From an uncultured Rickettsiales bacterium (lineage in GTDB: Bacteria > Pseudomonadota > Alphaproteobacteria > Rickettsiales > JALZUV01), in the NCBI GenBank assembly GCA_964654855.1, contig CAZZJS010000001.1:17772-81771 (forward strand): a stretch of DNA of 64,000 nucleotides, in the 5' to 3' direction. The translations under genes were made by a program, and so were the position numbers. The notes under the pieces are model-generated. The model saw nothing but the letters and a program-made list of their open reading frames with translations, was not told the DNA's origin and ran no database searches. Shown one piece after another: positions 25,513 to 36,775 of this stretch (the stretch's first letter is position 1; every line of letters begins with the position of its first letter).

Positions 25513-27537
25513 TTATTTTAAAACAGATAAAATGCTGGAACGATGATCAGTCCAAAGGGGTGAGTCAGGCGCTGCTTTGAGAGACGTAAAATTCATTTTA
25601 GTAAATTGTTCATCCCAGTGCGAATTAGGCTTTGCCATAAAGATCCACTCTGCGGTGCCATCATAAGAGAATTCAGGGTTATATTCAAAGCGCTTATGGT
25701 AAACGGCCATATTATATTCTTTTGCTAAACGAGCGAGTATGGGGCGCAAATCTGTATGGCGCGCGATAATATTAAATGCGAGTAGACCGTTTTGAGGGTT
25801 TAGCTTGCTAAGATAAATGCCGAGTGCCTCTTTGGTGAGTAAGTGCATAGGGATGGCACTTGAATTAAAAGCATCCAGCACAATTAAATTATATTTCTCA
25901 TTAGATTGCTTCCTGATTTCCAAACGACCATCTCCAAGAATGAGGTTTGGTTTGCCAGGGCAATCACGCAAATAGGTGAAATAGTCAGAGTTTTGTGCAA
26001 TCTCTGCGACGAGCGGATCAATCTCGTAAAAATCGATAATTTGATTTTCTGAAGCCATGCAGGTAAGCATTCCCGTGCCTAAACCAATGACTGCAAAAGG
26101 TTGTTCAAAGAAGCCAGAAGGTGTGTTTTCCATCAAGTTTCGGAGGTTGTGGTTGAGGTATAATTCGTGCCCAGGGAAAGTTGGTTGGTATCCTTGCTTA
26201 GTGCTGCCAATTTCGAGAATGCGCACAAAGAAGGGGGAGGCCTTTTCAGCGACTTTTTTAACACCAAAGAAGTTTCTCGCTTGATATTGCGCTTGGTAAT
26301 CATCGCTTTCTGTCCAAGTGATGATCAGTGCTAAAACAATGCATGAGGTGCTGCCAGCAAAGGCTGCTTTGCGTAGGGTGCTAAATTGGTGATGGTTCTT
26401 GAACCAATAGGTAAATGGAACGCTGAGCGAGAGTATTAGAATGATCGGGTATTCATAAATATCGTTGAATAAATAAGGCGCAATATTGGCGAATAAAGCT
26501 CCCAGAGCACCGCCTAGTGCAAGCCAAAAGTAATAGGAAGTAAGAGCCTCTGGTGCAGGTTTCTCTTTTGCTATTTGGCCATGACAACTAAGTGAAATGA
26601 TGAAGAGACATAGTAGGTGCAGTGCCACTTGCTCCATATAATAATTCTTGGCATAAAAATGCGAAAGAAATGCATAGACGTACCCTGCGAGTAAAAAGAC
26701 GAGAGCACAGATAGGTAAATGAAGGTGTTGTGCGAGGCTGATCCAGCGAGCTGCATTATTCGAAAAGGCGATAATAAAACTCAACAAATACAGTGCTAAT
26801 GGCAAAACCCATAAGAGCGGAATGGTCGCGATATCTGTCGTGATGAAGAGTGTTGTGCTTAAAAAGAGAGCGGATGGAATAAATCCCAAAAACAGGATGC
26901 GGAGGATAGACGAAGAGTTGAGAGCAAAGCTTGTATGTAAGCTCTCTGTTTGCGTTCTGATATGACGTAACTTTAAAGTGGTAAGGGTTAGTAATAGTAT
27001 CAATCCATAGAATAAATAACTCCAAGAAAGCATCTGTTCTTTTAGGGGGAAGAGCCATTCAATAAGAAGAGGATAGCTGAGCAACCCTGCTAAACTTCCA
27101 GCATTGCTAATCGAAAATAGAAAGTAGGGCGAGGTGCCGTTTGCTTGATAGTACCAGCGTTGCAAAAGTGTGGCGTTAGAAGCAAGTAGAAAATAGGGCA
27201 GGCCAACAGTGAATAAAAGGGTAACTACTATCCAATATTCTGGAATTGATTGAGGTAATTGCCCACTATATTGCAGCGATAATGGCAGCGTGAAGATAAG
27301 GGCAAGAAACAATAAGCCTAAATGAAGTTGGCTTTGCCGTTTTGCGGTTAAATAGAGGCTGCTAACGGATGCATAAGCATAGCCTGCCAATAAGAGTATT
27401 TGGAAAAATAATATAGAGGTAACCCATATAGCGGGTGCGCCGCCTACTTGTGGCAGTAAAGATTTCACCAATACCGGCTGAATAATAAAAAGCAGAAACG
27501 AGCCTAAAAATATGGCGAGTGAGAAGAGAGGTGCCAT
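25513..27537 (-). CDS. Fused polytopic membrane (MFS-like) / spermidine synthase-like protein
   Basis: About 400 aa of TM helices are followed by a class-I methyltransferase/aminopropyltransferase-like domain (VIGLGTGMLT, LIVLDAFNSSAIPMHLLTKEA). Confidence 0.75.
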   Translation of the reverse strand: MAPLFSLAIFLGSFLLFIIQPVLVKSLLPQVGGAPAIWVTSILFFQILLLAGYAYASVSSLYLTAKRQSQLHLGLLFLALIFTLPLSLQYSGQLPQSIPEYWIVVTLLFTVGLPYFLLASNATLLQRWYYQANGTSPYFLFSISNAGSLAGLLSYPLLIEWLFPLKEQMLSWSYLFYGLILLLTLTTLKLRHIRTQTESLHTSFALNSSSILRILFLGFIPSALFLSTTLFITTDIATIPLLWVLPLALYLLSFIIAFSNNAARWISLAQHLHLPICALVFLLAGYVYAFLSHFYAKNYYMEQVALHLLCLFIISLSCHGQIAKEKPAPEALTSYYFWLALGGALGALFANIAPYLFNDIYEYPIILILSLSVPFTYWFKNHHQFSTLRKAAFAGSTSCIVLALIITWTESDDYQAQYQARNFFGVKKVAEKASPFFVRILEIGSTKQGYQPTFPGHELYLNHNLRNLMENTPSGFFEQPFAVIGLGTGMLTCMASENQIIDFYEIDPLVAEIAQNSDYFTYLRDCPGKPNLILGDGRLEIRKQSNEKYNLIVLDAFNSSAIPMHLLTKEALGIYLSKLNPQNGLLAFNIIARHTDLRPILARLAKEYNMAVYHKRFEYNPEFSYDGTAEWIFMAKPNSHWDEQFTKMNFTSLKAAPDSPLWTDHRSSILSVLK

Positions 27538-27553
27538 GAAAAATCAAGCGACT

Positions 27554-27829
27554 TTACGGGCAAAAAGGAGGAGGATTCGGAGGGACGCAATTATCGGATA
27601 GAAAACCCATACTTAACGCTTGTTTAGAGGAGAGTACGACCATGGCAGCTCCTCCAGCAGCGGAGTATTTCGTTAGAGCTTTAATGGCTTCACGACGATC
27701 AATCTCATCATCATCGTCAATACCATGCTCTGCCTCAAAATCTGTAGACTCAACCTCGTCATGAAGTGTTTCTTCTATCGGCTCTTCTGCCGATTCAGAA
27801 TCTGAGATGTTATCGTTCATATTGGTCAT
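27554..27829 (-). CDS. Small acidic protein with internal Tat-like RR motif and Cys/Pro-rich C-terminus
   Basis: 91-aa ORF with GAGGA 10 nt upstream of the ATG. It ends 16 nt upstream of the next gene in the same orientation. The sequence reads ...DRREAIKALTKYSAAGGAAMVVLSSKQALS-MGFLSDNCVPPNPPPFCP. Confidence 0.5.
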   Translation of the reverse strand: MTNMNDNISDSESAEEPIEETLHDEVESTDFEAEHGIDDDDEIDRREAIKALTKYSAAGGAAMVVLSSKQALSMGFLSDNCVPPNPPPFCP

Positions 27830-27911
27830 GTGGATGGAATCCTCAAAATAGCCTTACCTTGATACTAGTTTAGCAGCTTCGGGGGTAATGCGTCAAATTG
27901 CAAAAAAGAGA

Positions 27912-30650
27912 CTATAAGGGTTGAGAAAACTTAAGATATTGATTGGGGGTAATAGATTCTATCGTTTGCGGCATTGCTTCGCCACACCAATGAAGATCCA
28001 GTGTAATATCATGCGGTTCTTCAGCGCCTAATCCAAAGAAAAGTCGAGGGTCATTCTGTGCGTTTAACCCATTTGAAGCAAGCCTGTAGCGAGTTTGTAT
28101 TTTTGGCGCCCCATTCACTCGATAAGATAGGGTTGCCTTGGTACCTATAGCATCACGGTTGCATGTTTTTCCATCACCTTTCAAATCCAAGCTCAACCAG
28201 TAAGAATCGCTAACAGATTCATTTTGGTAGAATGATGGGGGGGCGGTCATGCGAGTAACGATCGTATCTAAATCACCATCATTATCAAAATCAGCGAGAG
28301 CTACGGCTTTCGTATTATCTAGCTTCTCCCAGCCGGTGGAATCCGCAACATCCTCAAATTGCGCCTGCCCATTATTCAGCCAGACGCGCTTACGTTCTTG
28401 CGGATAAAGGCACTCGCCGCGCATATCCGGCCAATTATTTGCATAGCCATGCGTATCAGCGGGGGTGAACTCTATCTGAAACATTTTATACACATAATCT
28501 TCACATGCTTTGCTAGGGCTTTGGTCATAGGATTGGTCAATCCAGCCATTCATTTGTAGCAGATCCAAGGTGCCGTCGCGGTTAACATCACCTACCGCAG
28601 CGCCCCAGCCGAAACGATCATGGTTGAAAAGGTTGGAAGCAAAGGCTTGATCAACAAAATTTGCAGCATCGGGGGTAAGGTTTCCTTGGTTCATCCAGAG
28701 CATAGAGCCTTCAGGCACTTCTTTTTTATGCATGTTAGAAACGTAGATATCTTCAAACCCATCGGCATTAAAGTCAGCAAAGGAGGCATTCATTCCACGA
28801 TAAGTATCGTTGCCCAGTTGATGTTTTTTCCATCCGCTAACTTCTGAAAACCGTTCGCCTTTAATATTTAAGAGTAACTTATCAGGGCCGGCTGTATTGG
28901 CAAAATAAAGATCCATCCAGCCATCATTGTTCACATCACCTGCGCCAATATCCAAGGTCCAGCGGGTTTCATCTTCGATACCCCACGGTGCATTATTTTG
29001 TATTTCGTAGCGATCACCTTGGTTAATGAAAATACGATTTTCGCCGCCATTGCGGGCATCAAATGGATTGCGGCGCATAATATTAAGTGGGCGGTTATCT
29101 TCTGCATTTTCAGCTTTGGGAAGGTTAAATAAATTAAGCGGGGTAGGTTCCTCATAACTTGCATGATGGCGAGCGAGTGTGCCGCCCATAATGATATCCA
29201 ACTTACCATCGCGGTTGATATCAAGCACGTTTGCCGTCGCGCTATTCATATAATGATCTAGCCCTTTGGCTTTGGTGATATCAATAAAATCGAGCTGGCC
29301 AGTTTCTGATAGAGTATTTTGTAACAGCAATGGTGTGCCGCCATAACGGGTGAGAAGGAGGTCTTGGTCGCCATCATTATCTTCATCAAACCAGAGTACA
29401 TCCATCGCGACTCCTTCTGACTTTGCGTGATTTCGTAATCTATTGAGTGTACGAATTGGGTGTTTCGTAAATTTGAAATTCCCTTGATTTAAATAAAGTT
29501 GAGTACGATCCTCAGCGCGTTTAAGCGGTAAAGTAAGGAAGATATCAGGTAAACCATCTTGGTTCACGTCACTCACCGCTACTGCATCTCCCATGGAGAA
29601 AAACCATTTTGCGACATGCTGAATCCGTTGATCTGCTTGTTCTAATGTATCGCCTTTTTGAGCGCTAATGCCAGCCGATTGAGCCGTTATTTCTTTCAAA
29701 TGAAAATCAGATTTAGGAAGGAAGGTGTTTGATGAGCTATTGGCAAGTAACTGGTAAAAAGCGATGCTCAATAATGTTATTAACCCAATAGTAAGTGCAG
29801 GTTTTGTTTTGGTTGAAAGGCGTTCGGGAATGGTTTTCAAATCCATCTTCTGCTGCAACCAAATCCAGCGCAGAGCGAAATAAGTAATGCCTGCGTAAAA
29901 GAGGGTGAAGGTGAGTTGCGCCAAATGGAACAGAAAGTCGAAACCGACAATGGCGGCGGCCATACCGACTTGCCCTTTCCAATGTGATGGAGAAGTTTTT
30001 GGGTCAGTCAGCATGAAGTAGGTGAACAGATAAAAGGCAGGATTGCGCAATACGCCATCAATCAGCGCGAGCGGCGGGATGGCGGTATCTAGCACAAAAG
30101 TGCGTAAGTAAAGCTGTATGCCGTAAAAGATCAAGAAGCTGCAGGTGAGCACTAAGCGTGAAACATTGAAGAGGAATACGCTTAAAGCGGTGATGGTGAA
30201 AAAAAATGCCATGACCGCTTGTCCACCCCATTGTGCAGCAGAGGCCGGGCTAATTAATCCATCGGTGATGAGTAAGCATGCAACCAGTCCAAACATACCG
30301 GGGTTGAAGATATGTTTGTCATTCGCGGTGATAAGATATTTAGAGCAAATAGCGATAAAAATGGGAATAGCACCGAGCAAAATAGTATGTGCAAAGTTGG
30401 TTAGAATTGAAAGACCAAGGCAGGTAATAACGGCACTCATCGGAAAGAGAATGCCTTGCCCCGGTCGTAAGATGCGATGCAAGATCATATCAGTGCTGAT
30501 GCCCACCAATAGGATGAAAAAAACCTGTTCAGGTGTTTTGTTAATGCCCAGTAGGCTGATGCCGATAATAAGGAAAATAGCGAGCAACCCAGCGACACGA
30601 ATACGCGGATCGTTCCAGCCATGATAATTATTCCAAGTGAGGTTAGCCAT
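27912..30650 (-). CDS. Fusion protein: RnfD/NqrB-like polytopic membrane domain + FG-GAP/VCBS beta-propeller + ASPIC/UnbV domain (CRTAC1 family)
   Basis: The N-terminal ~330 aa contain KHIFNPGMFG and MLTDPKTSP, which are RnfD/NqrB hallmarks. Seven D-x-N/D-x-D-G-x-x-D repeats follow (DVNQDGLPD, DEDNDGDQD, DINRDGKLD, DVNNDGWMD, DFNADGFED, DVNRDGTLD, DFDNDGDLD). The C-terminal NRDAIGTKATL...DPRLFFGLG is the ASPIC/UnbV motif. The ATG at 30650 is 1 nt after the lnt stop. Confidence 0.85.
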   Translation of the reverse strand: MANLTWNNYHGWNDPRIRVAGLLAIFLIIGISLLGINKTPEQVFFILLVGISTDMILHRILRPGQGILFPMSAVITCLGLSILTNFAHTILLGAIPIFIAICSKYLITANDKHIFNPGMFGLVACLLITDGLISPASAAQWGGQAVMAFFFTITALSVFLFNVSRLVLTCSFLIFYGIQLYLRTFVLDTAIPPLALIDGVLRNPAFYLFTYFMLTDPKTSPSHWKGQVGMAAAIVGFDFLFHLAQLTFTLFYAGITYFALRWIWLQQKMDLKTIPERLSTKTKPALTIGLITLLSIAFYQLLANSSSNTFLPKSDFHLKEITAQSAGISAQKGDTLEQADQRIQHVAKWFFSMGDAVAVSDVNQDGLPDIFLTLPLKRAEDRTQLYLNQGNFKFTKHPIRTLNRLRNHAKSEGVAMDVLWFDEDNDGDQDLLLTRYGGTPLLLQNTLSETGQLDFIDITKAKGLDHYMNSATANVLDINRDGKLDIIMGGTLARHHASYEEPTPLNLFNLPKAENAEDNRPLNIMRRNPFDARNGGENRIFINQGDRYEIQNNAPWGIEDETRWTLDIGAGDVNNDGWMDLYFANTAGPDKLLLNIKGERFSEVSGWKKHQLGNDTYRGMNASFADFNADGFEDIYVSNMHKKEVPEGSMLWMNQGNLTPDAANFVDQAFASNLFNHDRFGWGAAVGDVNRDGTLDLLQMNGWIDQSYDQSPSKACEDYVYKMFQIEFTPADTHGYANNWPDMRGECLYPQERKRVWLNNGQAQFEDVADSTGWEKLDNTKAVALADFDNDGDLDTIVTRMTAPPSFYQNESVSDSYWLSLDLKGDGKTCNRDAIGTKATLSYRVNGAPKIQTRYRLASNGLNAQNDPRLFFGLGAEEPHDITLDLHWCGEAMPQTIESITPNQYLKFSQPL

Positions 30651-30651
30651 G

Positions 30652-32223
30652 CTAGAAATGCTCGTTTTTGTGCAAAATAAAAGCAAACCCTAACAGTAAG
30701 AGCGCAAAGCTGAAGAAGCTAAAGAGTCCGTAGCGGCTATAGAAGGTTTGTTCATTTTGCACGATAGGAATGGCGATATCTTGAAAGCCCTTTTCATGCA
30801 GTCCGATAGAGGTGAGTAATGTGCCATAGCGATCATAAGCAGCGCTGATACCGCTATTTGCAGCACGAATGATGGGCACGCCTTGCTCCACGCCGCGCAT
30901 ACGCGCCATATGTAAATGCTGATAAGGGCCAGCACTTTTGGCAAACCAACCATCATTGGTAATATTGACGAGTAGGTCGATAGGTTGATCAAAAAACGCA
31001 TGACGGCTGAAAATTGCCTCATAACAAATGAGCGAACCAATGTTTAACGAACTATCATCTAATGTAAGGAGCTTCTTTCCTTCGGCAGGCGTAAAATCTA
31101 ACTTTCCGGGGATCACTTTGCGAATGGGCAGAATGCTGCGAAAGGGTACATATTCGCCAAAAGGAACCAAATGGTGTTTATCGTAATATTGAACCTGCGC
31201 TTGGGAGGTAATAGCGGCAAGGCTATTCCATGCCTTATAGTTATCGCGGCTAGAGCCTTCGCCACGAATGGCACCTGTTAGGAGGGTTGTGTTAGGAGAT
31301 AGAAAGCTTGCCAACTTTGCAATCCACTCACTGTCTTTATCTAAATAGTAAGGGAAACTGGATTCTGGCCAGATGACAAGATTTAGTGGTTGCTCACTCG
31401 GCATTTGTGTCATGCTTGTGTAGTCGGTGAATGCCTGTTTTTTGTTCCAATTGCGTTCTTTGGCGACATTACCCTGAACCAATCTGGCTTGCAGATGTTT
31501 TGAATTTTGAGGGAGATCAGAAATGCGCAGGTGGCTCCAACCGCAAATCGCTAGAAGAAGGCAGATGCTGACGCCCACTAAAGCATAACGATACTTCGTT
31601 TGATAGGCTAAGAGAGCGGGTAGGGTGGCGAATAAAACGGTGAGTAAGTTTAGCCCGTAAATGCCAATAAGCGATGCAGGTTGCAGGAATATCTGATTGA
31701 TGGAAAGGCTGTAGCCGATGGCATTCCAAGGAAAGCCTGTGAAAAGATAACTACGTGCGACTTCCCATAAGGCAAAAAGAATCGCAAATAAAAGGATGCG
31801 TGAGCTGATTGCAGAGAAGCGGAATCGTTGCTTAATCAGATGGTAGGTTAGGCTAACTAAACCCCAATAGATGGATAAAATGGAAGAGAGGCCGAGCGTA
31901 GCAAAAGGGATCATCCAAGCGAATCGGGTGGAATCAACGAGGAGAGATAAAGCGATCCAATAAGTGCTGGAAAGGAAAAACCCTAGCCCGAAAAACCAAC
32001 CTGTAAGGAATGCTACCTTCTTCTGTTTCGTATGGTCAGCTAAGATGAATAAAATACCAAAGACTGGGATAAGCAATAGGGTGAAGAAAAAAGGGGCGAG
32101 CGTAAGCATAGCGCCGACACCTATCAATAATAAAAGCAAATAGCGCTTCCAGCTAGATAGGTTAGCGAGCCATTTCAACTTTTGGTTAAGCGGCATCTTC
32201 TCCGTAGCTACCATAATAGCCAT
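30652..32223 (-). CDS. lnt: Apolipoprotein N-acyltransferase
   Basis: Multi-TM N-terminal half plus a CN-hydrolase domain with the Glu/Lys/Cys triad contexts WPESSFPY, YDKHHLVPFGEYVP and SLICYEAIF. The start is uncertain (32223 or 32196); both overlap the wzc 3' end. Confidence 0.85.
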   Translation of the reverse strand: MAIMVATEKMPLNQKLKWLANLSSWKRYLLLLLIGVGAMLTLAPFFFTLLLIPVFGILFILADHTKQKKVAFLTGWFFGLGFFLSSTYWIALSLLVDSTRFAWMIPFATLGLSSILSIYWGLVSLTYHLIKQRFRFSAISSRILLFAILFALWEVARSYLFTGFPWNAIGYSLSINQIFLQPASLIGIYGLNLLTVLFATLPALLAYQTKYRYALVGVSICLLLAICGWSHLRISDLPQNSKHLQARLVQGNVAKERNWNKKQAFTDYTSMTQMPSEQPLNLVIWPESSFPYYLDKDSEWIAKLASFLSPNTTLLTGAIRGEGSSRDNYKAWNSLAAITSQAQVQYYDKHHLVPFGEYVPFRSILPIRKVIPGKLDFTPAEGKKLLTLDDSSLNIGSLICYEAIFSRHAFFDQPIDLLVNITNDGWFAKSAGPYQHLHMARMRGVEQGVPIIRAANSGISAAYDRYGTLLTSIGLHEKGFQDIAIPIVQNEQTFYSRYGLFSFFSFALLLLGFAFILHKNEHF

Positions 32224-34435
32224 AATAACCGTAAAGATTGAGCGCTTCCAGATCGACTTGAGTTAATAAAGAGCCTGCGATTTTATCGGCCACTTCGGGC
32301 GATCGTGTGAGCGCATTATTGATCATATTTTGGTTTGTTTTGCCCCAGTGAGCGAGGAAAATGAAACTATCAATCGAGTCAGCCATCGCGCGTGCATCTG
32401 CAATATTCATAATAGCAGGTAGATCGATGAGAATGATGTCAAAATTAGGCCGAAGCTTAGCGATTAATTCGCCCATTTGGCCAGAACCGATAAGGTTTAG
32501 GTTCGTTGTCGGAGTTTTGCTACCTTTAGCTGGAATAAAAGAAAGGTTTGGCGTGCCGGTTTTATGGCAAATATTATCGATTGCGCTCTCACACTCTTTT
32601 GGACTCAAGCCTTCCATTTCGTAAGCTAGTTCGTAAAAGCCTGTTTCAGCCTTTGGGTAGAGCAATTGAGTTAAGCTTGGGCGACGAAAATCGCAATCAA
32701 TCAATGCCACTTTTGCTCCCGTTTTCGCAAGATGCTTTGCGAGGAAACAAGAGGTGGTTGATTTACCTTCTCCAGGGTTTGCAGAAACAAGCGAAACAGA
32801 TTTGTGTGTTTCATTGGGTGCGCTGAACTTAATGGCCAATTGTGTTGTCCGCATGACTTCAGAGAGAGAGCTAGTCTGCTGGCCTAGCATTTCAGTTATT
32901 TTCTCAAATACGTCTTCCTGAAAGCCTTTCGTAGTCTTTTTATCGCGTGATTTTTTTTTCTTATTGGCTTGTTCTGTTAAGAAATCGACTTGAGTAATCA
33001 TTCCAAGGCAGGTGCGATTTGTTGCTTCTTCAAGCTCCTCTGCTTTACGAATATAGCTATCAAGGCGTTCGCGTAAAAAGACAAGCCCCACACCCAGTAA
33101 AGCACCAAAGACTGAAGATAAAATGAGAATAAGTGGTTTATTTGGCCAACTCGCATCCATAGGCAAGGTCGCATAACTAATTACTCGTCCTTGTATAAAA
33201 GGTGCAGATTGTCGTTGAACTTGCTCGTTCAAGTTATTGAGAAGATTTGTATAGAGATCTTGTAAAGAATTGGCTCCACGCTGTAACTCGCGCAGTTCAA
33301 TTTGATCATGTTGGTCGGTGAAGGAGTTGTCGCTGACAGCTGACAACTCCTCTTGCAATTTCTTCTGTTTTGAAAGTGCAATTTTATACTCATTCTCAAA
33401 CCCTTGAACGATGCGCGTATGTTCTTCTCTCATCAAGTTTTGAATGTCATTGATTTGTTGCTCAAGTGTCGTATAGGCTTGGTGCTTTGTGCCTTGGCCA
33501 CGCCTAATTTTTGCAGATCGTTGTGTTAGATCAATATATTGATTTCGCAAATTATTGAGCACTTTATTCTCAGTAGAGTTGCTGATGATTTTTTCAGAGC
33601 TACCTTCATCTAGAAGACTTTTTAAGTTCTCGTAACGTGCTTTAGCTTGTGCTGTATCAGTGCGAGCAATGATTAAGTTCGTATTTAATTCAGAAAGTTG
33701 TTGTTCATTAATGCTCTCTCGGCGAGGGCTATTAACAATATTTTTAGTTGATTTATACTCGTGAACTTTTTGTTCAGCGACGTTGAGGTCCTCACGTAAT
33801 TTTTCAACTCCCTCAGAAAGCCACTGATTGATCCGTTGTGAAGCCTCATACTGCGTTACAAGCTCTTGCTCTAAATAAACGTCAGCAATAATGTTGGCGA
33901 GGTCTTTCGCTTTTTTTCTGCTATCTGCAGTATAGCTAATATCTAGCACATAGGTGCGCTTGACACGTTTAACATCTAATCCATCTCTAAATTTCTGGAA
34001 GGCCTCTTTTCGGATTGTTTCTTTTTCAAGCTGTTTTGCTTGCTCCGCATTGCCGAATAAAGCTCCTCTAAAGGAGTGTAGAAGTTCATTACGGGGTTGT
34101 TCAAGATTTTGGTATATACTCGCTTTCTCAGCTACTTTTTCGAGCATTCTGCTGGAATGCATAACTTCGATTTGGCTATCAAGGATCAAATTTTCACGAA
34201 AATTCATCATCTGCAGTAAGCGATTAGGCATGACTGCTGATTGGCGCGGATCGATGAGGAGCGAGGTGGTAGCCGTATAAAGTGGCACTGAAACGGTAAT
34301 GTAGAGGAAACCCAGCATAAAGCAGGTAACGCTGCATAAGACGATCAGTTTGCGATGGCGCTGTAAGGCAGCGACGAACTCTCTAATATAGAGCATAGCA
34401 TCGAACTGCTGCTGCGTATCCAGATTATTCTGCAT
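32186..34435 (-). CDS. wzc: Polysaccharide co-polymerase / BY-family tyrosine autokinase (Wzc/GumC-like), copy 1
   Basis: Wzz-type N-terminus with a TM segment, then a long coiled-coil periplasmic region and a second TM segment. The kinase has Walker A SANPGEGKST, CDFRRPSL and Walker B-like IILIDLP. The tail is Tyr-rich (YGYYGYYGSYG). Confidence 0.9.
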   Translation of the reverse strand: MQNNLDTQQQFDAMLYIREFVAALQRHRKLIVLCSVTCFMLGFLYITVSVPLYTATTSLLIDPRQSAVMPNRLLQMMNFRENLILDSQIEVMHSSRMLEKVAEKASIYQNLEQPRNELLHSFRGALFGNAEQAKQLEKETIRKEAFQKFRDGLDVKRVKRTYVLDISYTADSRKKAKDLANIIADVYLEQELVTQYEASQRINQWLSEGVEKLREDLNVAEQKVHEYKSTKNIVNSPRRESINEQQLSELNTNLIIARTDTAQAKARYENLKSLLDEGSSEKIISNSTENKVLNNLRNQYIDLTQRSAKIRRGQGTKHQAYTTLEQQINDIQNLMREEHTRIVQGFENEYKIALSKQKKLQEELSAVSDNSFTDQHDQIELRELQRGANSLQDLYTNLLNNLNEQVQRQSAPFIQGRVISYATLPMDASWPNKPLILILSSVFGALLGVGLVFLRERLDSYIRKAEELEEATNRTCLGMITQVDFLTEQANKKKKSRDKKTTKGFQEDVFEKITEMLGQQTSSLSEVMRTTQLAIKFSAPNETHKSVSLVSANPGEGKSTTSCFLAKHLAKTGAKVALIDCDFRRPSLTQLLYPKAETGFYELAYEMEGLSPKECESAIDNICHKTGTPNLSFIPAKGSKTPTTNLNLIGSGQMGELIAKLRPNFDIILIDLPAIMNIADARAMADSIDSFIFLAHWGKTNQNMINNALTRSPEVADKIAGSLLTQVDLEALNLYGYYGYYGSYGEDAA

Positions 34436-34565: not shown

Positions 34566-35690
34566 TTACCTAAAACGCTGAATCCGGTCTTTATGAAAGG
34601 TAAAAAAATGTTGCCACCCTCTTAGGGTCGTTATTTTTTTTAGGTAATGCTTTCGTTTTTGTGGGTTGGTAAAGAACTGAATGAGGTATCTTTTAAGCCA
34701 AATAAAGCTATCAAAGTATTTTTGTTGAGTGGGGCGACCAAAATTATGTAACGCTTTTTTTGCCCATGTGTTTTTTTCAATGGCGCTTGTCTCTACAAAA
34801 AGGCTTTCTGTTAGAGTATCCAAGCTATCTAAAAGGTCATTCAAATGATGTTTTTCGAATATCTCAGCCGTTTTATTGCGAGTTTTTTGGTCTAATTTTT
34901 TATTAAAATAAAAATGATCGACGCAATGACGCAGGTTTAACAGCTTGCGTCCATAATATTGAGATTCAAGTTGGCAATGAATTAAATGATGCGTGAAGCG
35001 GTCTTGAGGAGAGGGAATAAAAATACCTTCAAAGTGAGCGGAAATTGCATTTCTAAATATATGTGCTGCAGGTAATATTGCATCAGAGTTTTGATCGCCA
35101 ATGCGTTTATGGAGTTCAATACGGAAGGGTAGTTCCCCGCCTTCAATTCCAGGGATATGGTGGTGCTGTTCGAATAATATTTGATCTTTCGTATTGAGGG
35201 ATCCTCCTCTGGCAAGTAGTAGCTCGATTGCACTGTCAATTTGGTTCTCAGGAATCAATATATCTAAATCGCTAAGGAGGCGGTGCGAAGGATCATCATA
35301 ATAAGGAGTTATCATTTCGGCAGCACCTTTGAGGGCAACCGCATTAATACTTTTTTCTTTAAATAATAATCCAAGCGTTTCTAGCTCGTGTTTCGCAGTT
35401 TGGTTGCGTTTTTTATTCTCAGAATGAATAAGTGAAAAATAAAGAAATAAATCCTCTGGAATAAATTCCTGTAACTCAGGGTATTTAGTAAAAGCGGAGC
35501 GGATTAAAGTATGGACTTGGTTGTCGTTTGCTATTTTTGCGAGATGCTGAGGGTCGCTATTTTTAAGGTCATCTTTTAAGTAAGGCGAAAATGTGCCGCC
35601 TATTGCTGCGGATGTAAGGCCAATAACTGCGCGATGAGCGGGCGAGTTGCAAAAAGAATCTAGCAGGCTTATGTGGTGAGTTTTAGGCAT
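34566..35690 (-). CDS. Nucleotidyltransferase family protein (uncharacterised NTP_transf_5 type)
   Basis: ALKGAAEMITPYYDDPSHRLLSDLDILIPE matches the LKG...R.x.DxDxLV signature of this family. It overlaps the upstream kinase gene by 22 nt. Confidence 0.7.
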   Translation of the reverse strand: MPKTHHISLLDSFCNSPAHRAVIGLTSAAIGGTFSPYLKDDLKNSDPQHLAKIANDNQVHTLIRSAFTKYPELQEFIPEDLFLYFSLIHSENKKRNQTAKHELETLGLLFKEKSINAVALKGAAEMITPYYDDPSHRLLSDLDILIPENQIDSAIELLLARGGSLNTKDQILFEQHHHIPGIEGGELPFRIELHKRIGDQNSDAILPAAHIFRNAISAHFEGIFIPSPQDRFTHHLIHCQLESQYYGRKLLNLRHCVDHFYFNKKLDQKTRNKTAEIFEKHHLNDLLDSLDTLTESLFVETSAIEKNTWAKKALHNFGRPTQQKYFDSFIWLKRYLIQFFTNPQKRKHYLKKITTLRGWQHFFTFHKDRIQRFR

Positions 35691-36775
35691 GTTTGAACTG
35701 AATAATCGGATGAAGAATAAGATAGGTTATAAGCTGGTACATGGTTCAGCAATGTTGCTATGGGGATAATAGACGGAGATTTATGATAAGTTCTGCCGCC
35801 AGCTTCAATCAATTGCTGTAAGGCTGTTTCTGGTGAAATTAGGGTTATTTCATTTCTATGCCTCTCTCCAAAATGTGGAAAAATAATCGCAGAAACGGCT
35901 GATGTTTGGCCTAATGGCACGGCATTTCTAATTTGATTATAGGTTACTCCATATCGAGGTGCAGTTGAATTTGGTTCTTCAAACCCTAGCTCCTTTGCTT
36001 CTCTTAGATTTAAAGAACCTGCTTTTAATCCAATCGGGGTTGGGAAAGAAAATACAGCTTTGCCATTGCGATGCAAAGGTAAGACATCGTCAGCCATAAA
36101 GTTAAAGCCTGCAGCAACAAGCCCCGCCGTAAGGGTTGATTTTCCGTAACCGCTTTTCTGGGTAATAAGAAGTGTTTTATTATCTTGATTGGTCGCGCAG
36201 CTCGCATGCAAAATAGCGCCGACGTTTTCCGGATTACATAAATGAGCGGCGGCCTCTCTAAATACTAAGTTACGTGCTAAGTCTATATTACAGCTCCCCC
36301 ATAAGGGTTGTTGATTCAGAAAAACTCCAAATTCATTTGCGATCGAAATAATCTCAATTACAGCAGAAGTCGAGTTGCTTATCTCATCAGAATATGCGGT
36401 AAAAACTTCCTGTATCTGTCGAAATAAATGTTCATCATCGCATCGAATATGCAGGCTGTTATGTTCTGATTTTAGCTGTAGTTGTTGGTACGGTTTGCTG
36501 ATAGGGCGGTAAGTGACGGTTGTGGGGAAGGCTGGTTTTTGGGTATCCAGCAATCCAGCTTCGTGCCATGCTTGTAATATGTCTGCATGGGCAGAGCTCG
36601 AGCGGCCTTCACGCAAATCATGATATAAATCATAGCCATCCTGATTGGATAAAATAATGGCATCCGAAAGAGGGGAGTGAAGAATATAACTGTCTCCCAA
36701 CGGCGTGCATTCCAGTGTGGAAATGCTGCTAGGTTCTAATTTCTGATGAAGGCTCAGGCTCATTAATAGAGTCAT
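35669..36775 (-). CDS. HprK-related kinase (HPr kinase C-terminal-like P-loop) with N-terminal PqqD/RRE-like region
   Basis: P-loop and flanks LITQKSGYGKSTLTAGLVAAGFNFMADDV resemble the HprK catalytic core. The first ~80 aa (YILHSPLSDAIILSNQDGYDLYHDLREGRSS..ILQAWHEAGLL) look PqqD-like by eye. Confidence 0.65.
   Translation of the reverse strand: MTLLMSLSLHQKLEPSSISTLECTPLGDSYILHSPLSDAIILSNQDGYDLYHDLREGRSSSAHADILQAWHEAGLLDTQKPAFPTTVTYRPISKPYQQLQLKSEHNSLHIRCDDEHLFRQIQEVFTAYSDEISNSTSAVIEIISIANEFGVFLNQQPLWGSCNIDLARNLVFREAAAHLCNPENVGAILHASCATNQDNKTLLITQKSGYGKSTLTAGLVAAGFNFMADDVLPLHRNGKAVFSFPTPIGLKAGSLNLREAKELGFEEPNSTAPRYGVTYNQIRNAVPLGQTSAVSAIIFPHFGERHRNEITLISPETALQQLIEAGGRTYHKSPSIIPIATLLNHVPAYNLSYSSSDYSVQTCLKLTT

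Follow-up and report, generated by a model that had tools for sequence, protein, structure and literature searches.

A small peptide with a Tat-signal-like leader and its linkage to an HprK-like kinase and a nucleotidyltransferase in an uncultured Rickettsiales bacterium

The peptide gene and the gene string around it

The window analyzed here is the whole 64,000-nucleotide stretch of DNA from an uncultured Rickettsiales bacterium (genome G000). On its minus strand, a short open reading frame of 91 codons, P0001, lies in a string of seven genes that begins with a kinase gene and ends with a gene for a fused membrane protein. The features of this string, in the order of transcription, are as follows.

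35669-36775, minus strand: RRE-like/HprK-like putative peptide kinase, 368 aa, first gene of the string (TIGR04352, 57 bits; PF07475, weak)
34566-35690, minus strand: NTP_transf_5 nucleotidyltransferase (NTase), 374 aa (PF14907, 1e-27, 97.7 bits), overlapping the kinase gene by 22 nt
32186-34435, minus strand: Wzc-type polysaccharide co-polymerase/tyrosine autokinase (TIGR01005, 1.1e-93)
30652-32223, minus strand: second, cluster-specific paralogue of apolipoprotein N-acyltransferase (Lnt) (TIGR00546, 311 bits)
27912-30650, minus strand: polytopic membrane domain with a CRTAC1-type FG-GAP propeller and an ASPIC/UnbV domain (Pfam)
27867-27896, minus strand: sigma-70-like promoter, TTGACG, 18 nt, TG-n-TAAACT (consensus scan, near chance level)
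27840-27844, minus strand: Shine-Dalgarno sequence GAGGA, 10 nt 5' of the ATG
27554-27829, minus strand: putative precursor-peptide gene P0001, 91 aa, with the ATG at 27829-27827 and the stop codon at 27554-27556
27698-27829, minus strand: acidic N-extension, residues 1-44
27611-27697, minus strand: RR...ALS leader or Tat-type signal, residues 45-73
27557-27610, minus strand: putative core MGFLSDNCVPPNPPPFCP, residues 74-91
25513-27537, minus strand: fused polytopic membrane/SpeE-like protein, 674 aa (NF037959, 46.7 bits, cut-off 40)

The translation of 27554-27829 on the minus strand is identical to the protein described in an earlier note on this DNA, and most of the architecture reported there was recovered. 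The N-terminal region is strongly acidic as described, with 19 Asp/Glu and no Lys/Arg, and comprises 44 residues before the arginine pair rather than the 45 counted previously. The RR-x-A-I-K motif is present as RR-E-A-I-K, an A-x-S-like site as A-L-S before M74, and the 18-residue tail indeed carries a C-x8-C arrangement together with six prolines. The GAGGA ribosome binding site, 10 nt before the ATG, was likewise found. The h-region, previously called mildly hydrophobic, has a best 19-residue Kyte-Doolittle mean of 1.15, compared with 1.6-2.4 for the transmembrane helices of the neighboring membrane protein.

Two orthologues of the peptide were identified, P0006 in the MAG of a Rickettsiales bacterium of the same genus (G002, locus L005) and P0007 on a metagenome contig (L008). 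Conservation of the frame at related loci had been proposed as a test of the gene, and the frame is kept in both. Insertions and deletions among the three orthologues are multiples of three, and synonymous sites are saturated (pS 0.65-0.88, Nei-Gojobori). The leader shows a pN of 0.01-0.10 over 33 aligned codons, from DEIDRR to ALS, compared with a pS of 0.65-0.86, and a dN/dS of about 0-0.07, indicating strong purifying selection on the 29-aa RR...ALS segment. In the core the pN is 0.24-0.36 (Nei-Gojobori), and in the acidic N-region it reaches about 0.5, yet 15-19 acidic and 0-1 basic residues are retained there. A spurious ORF or non-coding spacer might be suspected from the shortness of the frame and its acidic, low-complexity N-terminal half. 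This reading is contradicted by the retention of the frame in three genomes despite saturated synonymous sites, by the low dN/dS of the leader, and by a peptide family of at least 42 members (see below); it was refuted by the codon analysis, and the chance that it holds is next to nothing. The 91-aa ORF is a real gene.

The 82-nt spacer that precedes the peptide gene contains the sigma-70-like site. Despite saturation at synonymous sites, the TTGAC and CTGyTAAnnT elements of this site are kept in the corresponding spacers of all three loci, and the orthologues have AGGG or AGGGA at the position of the Shine-Dalgarno sequence. The scan that gave the promoter-like site found no terminator-like site. 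Since the promoter-like elements are conserved in all three upstream gaps, the sequences suggest that the peptide gene has a putative promoter of its own inside the gene string.

In the sister genome (L005) the order is kinase, NTase, Lnt, CRTAC1 fusion, peptide, and MFS/SpeE; the Wzc gene, which lies between the NTase and lnt genes in the window, is absent from that position. Among 41 relatives, peptide and kinase were each found only in the window genome and G002. The window genome contains two full-length Lnt genes, and among the 13 nearest genomes a second full-length Lnt was found only in the same two. The cluster Lnt (Lnt2) retains the E-K-C catalytic triad and forms a separate clade (support 100/100) apart from the housekeeping Lnt of the genus. 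G001 and G003, two genomes of the same genus, have one Lnt each; the other Lnt of the window genome (G000:C1:446808-447992) clusters with these and is therefore presumably the housekeeping enzyme.

The gene downstream of the peptide, described earlier as an MFS/SpeE fusion, was confirmed as such by NF037959. It starts 16 nt after the peptide stop codon and is the next gene after the peptide at each of the three orthologous loci. The encoded protein has about 10 hydrophobic segments; it gave no match in the PDB sequence search, and its AF2 model, built from 3 sequences, was unusable (pLDDT 43). An orthologue with more than 60% identity is present only in G000 and G002, and when the regions upstream of 30 MFS/SpeE homologues in the order were inspected, the peptide was again found only in these two, so the link to MFS/SpeE is lineage-specific. 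Since peptide, kinase, Lnt2, and MFS/SpeE-like protein occur in the same two genomes, the module is gained or lost as a unit. Base composition gave no island signal, with GC contents of 0.40-0.46 for the string and 0.40-0.48 for the window as a whole.

The upstream neighbor had been read as an RnfD::CRTAC1 fusion. Its CRTAC1-type part was borne out by Pfam (FG-GAP_3, 1.7e-35; UnbV_ASPIC, 7.5e-9), but RnfD was recovered neither by Pfam nor by the PDB sequence search: the polytopic N-domain of about 330 aa had no Pfam match at E<=0.1 and no PDB sequence match. The likeness of this domain to RnfD/NqrB is limited to two short motifs. The CRTAC1 fusion is present in two of the three orthologous loci.

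Two further observations concern the surroundings of these genes. Large HemolysinCabind (RTX-repeat) proteins adjoin the module in L005 (1-1104) and L008 (4058-6259), followed in L008 by a Tad pilus locus. At two other loci, L015 (G017:C7) and L016 (G053:C10), a 42%-identical MFS/SpeE-like paralogue is preceded, at a distance of 62 nt, by the genes of a bufferin maturase pair, namely an HvfC-like RRE protein and the MNIO protein BufB (310 bits, at the cut-off). Taken with the window, these contexts place the MFS/SpeE-like family twice beside systems of signal-peptide-bearing Cys peptides.

The 44-aa acidic N-extension and the fixed linkage to Lnt2 and the MFS/SpeE-like protein are confined to the three genomes. 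Lnt2, the CRTAC1-type propeller, and the MFS/SpeE-like protein probably act on the peptide or handle it in the envelope.

A peptide family linked to a kinase and a nucleotidyltransferase

A profile of the conserved half of the peptide was searched with HMMER against 1.84 billion representative proteins and gave 20 matches at E<=1e-3, nearly all of them 64-120 aa long. Further members were obtained by a word-indexed search, and six-frame scans of the loci added unannotated tandem paralogues, bringing the family to at least 42 non-redundant members. One cultured carrier is Thalassovita litoralis, with three tandem precursors. Pfam and NCBIfam scans of 20 members returned no covering model. Pattern scans of genome and metagenome contigs with the three-sequence alignment gave no confirmed relative. 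A literature search for Tat-leader peptides paired with such a kinase and NTase found no paper, and we could not find the family described in Pfam, NCBIfam, or the papers searched.

The arginine pair is present in 41 of the 42 members, and the segment from RR to the AxA/AxS site has a constant length of 29-30 residues across the family. The leader consensus of the 42 members is RRDALRAxGKYSAxxGxxGVVVLSAEDAVA; since members were collected by a leader-based profile, this conservation is partly built in, while cores, Cys parity, and gene contexts are free of that bias. Related genomes are non-independent samples throughout. Following the predicted cleavage site, the sequence is hypervariable. The cores usually contain an even number of cysteines (two in 29, four in 6, and six in 2 of the 42 members), and a C-x8-C arrangement is found in 20/42, such as CSRPNPPWWC, CTDYYPWWLC, and CYNPNPPKRC, with CVPPNPPPFC in the window. 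If cleavage occurs as predicted, 20 of 33 cores start with Gln. In 31/33 cores the first Cys has a Ser or Thr among the four residues preceding it or immediately following it, compared with about 49% expected by composition. Each locus contains one to three tandem paralogues that have a common leader and differ in their cores. The suggestion of the earlier note that the product is a leader-core or disulfide-cyclized peptide rather than a normal Tat substrate is thus strengthened by the conserved leader, the hypervariable core with its even Cys counts, and the tandem paralogues.

Several loci deserve separate mention. In the Rhodobacteraceae loci L054-L057, L069, and L070, three types of precursor stand side by side, each of them conserved between loci. 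In the first, a long tail rich in Gly and Asn follows the C-x8-C loop; the second has a Trp-rich CxxYYPWWLCWWLGY core, and the third a short CYNPNPPKRC core. Diverged tandem members were found in G380:C9 (L066/L067), G380:C23 (L062), and G329:C68 (L065), three of them on one contig. These diverged ORFs stop 1-10 residues past the AxA site and are essentially leader-only peptides; one of the G380/G329 family matches reads through an in-frame TGA.

The earlier note had proposed to look for relatives of the peptide beside CRTAC1 or MFS/SpeE homologues. These partners accompany the peptide only in the three close genomes, and family-wide the partners are instead an HprK-like kinase with a putative fused RRE and an NTP_transf_5 protein. 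At the distant loci, the one to three peptide genes are directly followed by an HprK-like protein of about 360 aa and an NTP_transf_5 protein of about 370 aa, and tblastn searches with the window kinase and NTase confirmed the homology of these partners. Both homologues lie beside the peptide in L005, in Thalassovita litoralis and relatives (L054-57), in a Pseudomonadota MAG (L058/59), in L060, L068, and L069, and in two genomes of the class sample (G329 and G380). In L070/71 a kinase gene truncated by the contig end lies beside the peptide, and in G461 only an NTase match was found, near a weak peptide-like match (E 3.8e-4). Counting L070/71 for the kinase only and G461 for the NTase only, the peptide is linked to kinase/NTase in 10/11 loci. 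No kinase or NTase gene was found within 8 kb of the peptide in L008. The L058/59 peptide locus is embedded in a Wzz/Wzy/glycosyltransferase locus. The enzymes of lasso peptide biosynthesis, an Asn-synthetase-like macrolactam cyclase and a B2 protease, occur neither in the string nor around the peptide genes of L054-L069.

The AF2 model of the kinase has a pLDDT of 89.7, and a Foldseek search with it retrieved PEP carboxykinases and HPr kinase/phosphatases, which have one common fold. No variation was seen among the kinase orthologues in the P-loop SGxGKST or in a DD pair. In the window model, the N-terminal stretch of about 90 residues consists of three strands and two helices. This N-domain matches PqqD (PF05402, model positions 2-67) in 4/6 orthologues at 15-21 bits, below the cut-off of 23.4. 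The window kinase gave no PqqD match, and neither did the L058 copy; the PqqD/RRE-like N-domain of the window kinase (36476-36775, minus strand) has a deletion of about 19 aa in a segment kept by all six orthologues. The best-scoring named kinase family is that of the NCBIfam HPr-rel-A system (TIGR04352), with which the association with a PqqD-type domain is shared, although in that system the partner is a PqqD-family protein and here the putative RRE is fused. The window kinase scores 57.2 bits and its orthologues 53-78 bits, far below the equivalog cut-off of 200 bits, and the window kinase therefore belongs to a different subfamily. ScmC, a SynChlorMet cassette protein (TIGR04249), is a distant HprK-like relative.

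Predicted export and alternative readings

The leader of the window peptide is RREAIKALTKYSAAGGAAMVVLSSKQALS. Its twin-arginine motif reads D-R-R-E-A-I-K, and the family consensus S-R-R-D-A-L-R fits five positions of the S/T-R-R-x-F-L-K type. A Tat-like h-region and c-region are recognizable in the weakly hydrophobic YSAAGGAAMVVLSS, followed by K69 and then A-L-S73, with a hydrophobic stretch of 14 residues between two lysines. The acidic residues that flank the pair (D-RR-E) are unusual for Tat. The Tat-signal model TIGR01409 matched the window peptide at 15.5 bits (E 0.016), under its cut-off of 16.7, and 2/20 family members matched at E<0.1. TatC is encoded in the window genome (G000:C6; TIGR00945, 207.6 bits, above cut-off). 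The Tat route would be sensible for a peptide modified before export, and Sec would be a possible alternative.

Several features point to a RiPP-like product: leader and core differ in conservation, precursors occur in tandem, Cys counts are usually even, the predicted cleavage site lies at a fixed distance from RR, and the peptide genes are linked to those of the enzymes. We consider it reasonably probable that the ORF gives rise to an exported mini-peptide of ribosomal origin by way of a single precursor, whose leader would serve both as a Tat-type signal and as the recognition handle of the kinase. Export, cleavage, phosphorylation, disulfide formation, and all of the chemistry are inferred by analogy with published relatives. 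The gene would be transcribed from its own conserved promoter, and the HprK-like kinase with its putative fused RRE would recognize the peptide by the conserved leader. In the cytoplasm, the kinase may then phosphorylate a Ser near the leader-core junction, with S78 in ...ALS|MGFLS*DNC as the candidate, and the NTP_transf_5 enzyme may extend the Ser phosphate. The modified precursor would be exported, probably by Tat, and signal peptidase I is predicted to cleave after A-L-S73. The released core MGFLSDNCVPPNPPPFCP, 18 residues long, would close a disulfide loop between C81 and C90 in the periplasm.

Signal-peptide-like architecture and even Cys counts require no modification, and the product could instead be a common type of small disulfide peptide that Sec or Tat delivers to the periplasm or the exterior, while the kinase and NTase act on a polysaccharide or a regulatory target. 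Four genes separate the peptide from the kinase and NTase in the window, over a distance of 6.7 kb, neither enzyme is close by in L008, and LppN showed no detectable activity in the published work on linear polyphosphorylated peptides (PMC13381572). However, the two enzymes adjoin the peptide in 10/11 loci across distant taxa, the leader is conserved far above generic signal peptides, the kinase orthologues carry a PqqD-like peptide-binding domain (sub-threshold matches), and tandem multi-precursor loci are typical of RiPP clusters; we regard the unmodified peptide as fairly unlikely. It is also unlikely that the product stays uncleaved as a small membrane protein, with the acidic tail in the cytoplasm, one helix in the membrane, and the Cys loop outside, and serves the MFS/SpeE-like protein translated next to it, or the Wzc polysaccharide machinery, as a subunit or regulator. 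The 16-nt gap to the MFS/SpeE gene and the invariance of this pairing in three genomes would fit such a role, as would the AAGGAA run of small residues, perfectly conserved among the three orthologues, and the near absence of a core after the AxA site in the distant members of G380 and G329. Against it stand the hydrophobic stretch of only 14 residues with a Kyte-Doolittle mean of 1.15, below the 1.6 usual for transmembrane helices, the constant distance of the AxA/AxS site from RR family-wide, and the lack of linkage of the family to MFS/SpeE proteins outside the three genomes.

The dedicated Lnt raises the possibility of a lipoprotein-type substrate similar to the DAG-RiPPs, a published precedent (PMC13056109), in which Lgt and LspA would act at the first Cys and N-acylation by this Lnt would follow. 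Among the 13 nearest genomes, a second, catalytically intact Lnt is found only in the peptide-bearing ones, and it lies upstream of the peptide in all three loci. The sequences before the first Cys argue against this route: the lipobox [LVI][ASTVI][GAS]C was not found in the three orthologues, which have LSDN-C, LSEE-C, and LSI-C and thus no G, A, or S at position -1. In addition, the forbidden zone contains acidic residues, and the spacing varies. The lipoprotein-type route was rejected for the missing lipobox before C81 and is very unlikely.

An extended form of the RiPP-like reading would make the family a novel RiPP class exported by Tat, with recognition leader and export signal combined in one sequence. 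In this lineage, the phospho-(glycosyl-)peptide would in addition be N-acylated on its new N-terminus by the dedicated Lnt, with neither a lipobox nor a diacylglyceryl-Cys, yielding a membrane-anchored lipopeptide that primes, anchors, or regulates the Wzc-dependent polysaccharide of this gene string. In its entirety, we hold this proposal to be improbable. The N-acylation of the new N-terminus by Lnt2 is speculative, and DAG-RiPPs (PMC13056109) would be its nearest precedent.

Relation to published systems and implications

The closest published system is known from Bacillota, where lppA-K-B-S-D-N clusters encode RiPPs named linear polyphosphorylated peptides (LPP; Popov et al., Nat Commun 2026, PMC13381572). 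In the LPP core, Ser3 is polyphosphorylated by LppK, and the LPP clusters are found in capsule/polysaccharide loci (PMC13381572). Common to LPP and the window family are an HprK-like kinase with an uncharacterized NTP transferase, one to three precursors that are conserved at the N-terminus and hypervariable at the C-terminus, the absence of a lasso cyclase, and the setting in polysaccharide loci. In LPP the leader is cut by an enzyme of the signal peptidase I type and the phospho-Ser lies just past the cut; in the window family Ser is enriched at the equivalent place. The two systems differ in that the window system is alphaproteobacterial and its putative RRE is fused to the kinase, while the RRE of LPP is discrete. 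The SipW-type signal peptidase I and the MsbA-like exporter of LPP are absent from all seven genes of the string. In addition, the window leader is Tat-signal-like (RRxALxAxGKYSA...AxA), lacking the LPP motif YxxPxVLxHQxIxFETxxS as well as the YxxP motif that known RRE ligands of lasso and LPP systems contain, and the cores of the window family carry paired Cys, unlike those of LPP.

Enzymes of the same families are known from phosphorylated lasso peptides. PadeK and PsmK phosphorylate lasso precursors, and PsmN adds hexoses to the phosphate (reviewed in PMC8498205). The paeninodin (PadeK) and pseudomycoidin (PsmK/PsmN) systems share with the window an HPr-kinase homologue and a nucleotidyltransferase, and the kinase acts on the linear precursor. 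In contrast to these systems, the gene string has no macrolactam cyclase or B2 protease, and its peptide ends in Cys-Pro instead of Ser.

Other likenesses concern the signal peptide. Bufferins (BufA) are RiPP precursors with a Sec signal peptide (PMC11626156), and the window peptide is predicted to resemble them in a signal-peptide leader cut by signal peptidase, a periplasmic Cys product, and disulfide formation after export. Unlike bufferins, it has a Tat-like signal, a kinase and NTase instead of MNIO and DUF2063 proteins, and a much smaller core. The DAG-RiPPs (PMC13056109) lead from RiPP precursors with signal peptides to envelope lipoprotein enzymes including Lnt, and the window has its dedicated Lnt paralogue; it differs from them in having no lipobox before the Cys and no MNIO enzyme. 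The formate dehydrogenase region TAT targets (TIGR02811) are also shorter than 100 aa, with a twin-arginine signal and a short conserved tail. Weak matches to this model were obtained in 4/20 family members (E ~0.02), and the window peptide differs from these proteins in tail motif and genomic context.

The gene string of the window is an unusually elaborated member of a peptide-kinase-NTase type of cassette. Pairs of an HprK-like kinase and an NTP_transf_5 protein with no lasso cyclase occur in several proteobacterial lineages, and our results point to small Tat-signal-like peptides as their substrate. Where classical RiPP pathways have a dedicated protease and transporter, signal peptidase I and the general export machinery are suggested to do the work here, and a Tat-type signal on so small a product may be explained by the need of a modified peptide for a route that tolerates bulky groups. 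The dedicated Lnt paralogue provides a lead to lipobox-independent peptide acylation. Finally, the placement in polysaccharide loci of both the LPP clusters of Bacillota and the alphaproteobacterial cassettes hints at a shared role at the cell surface.
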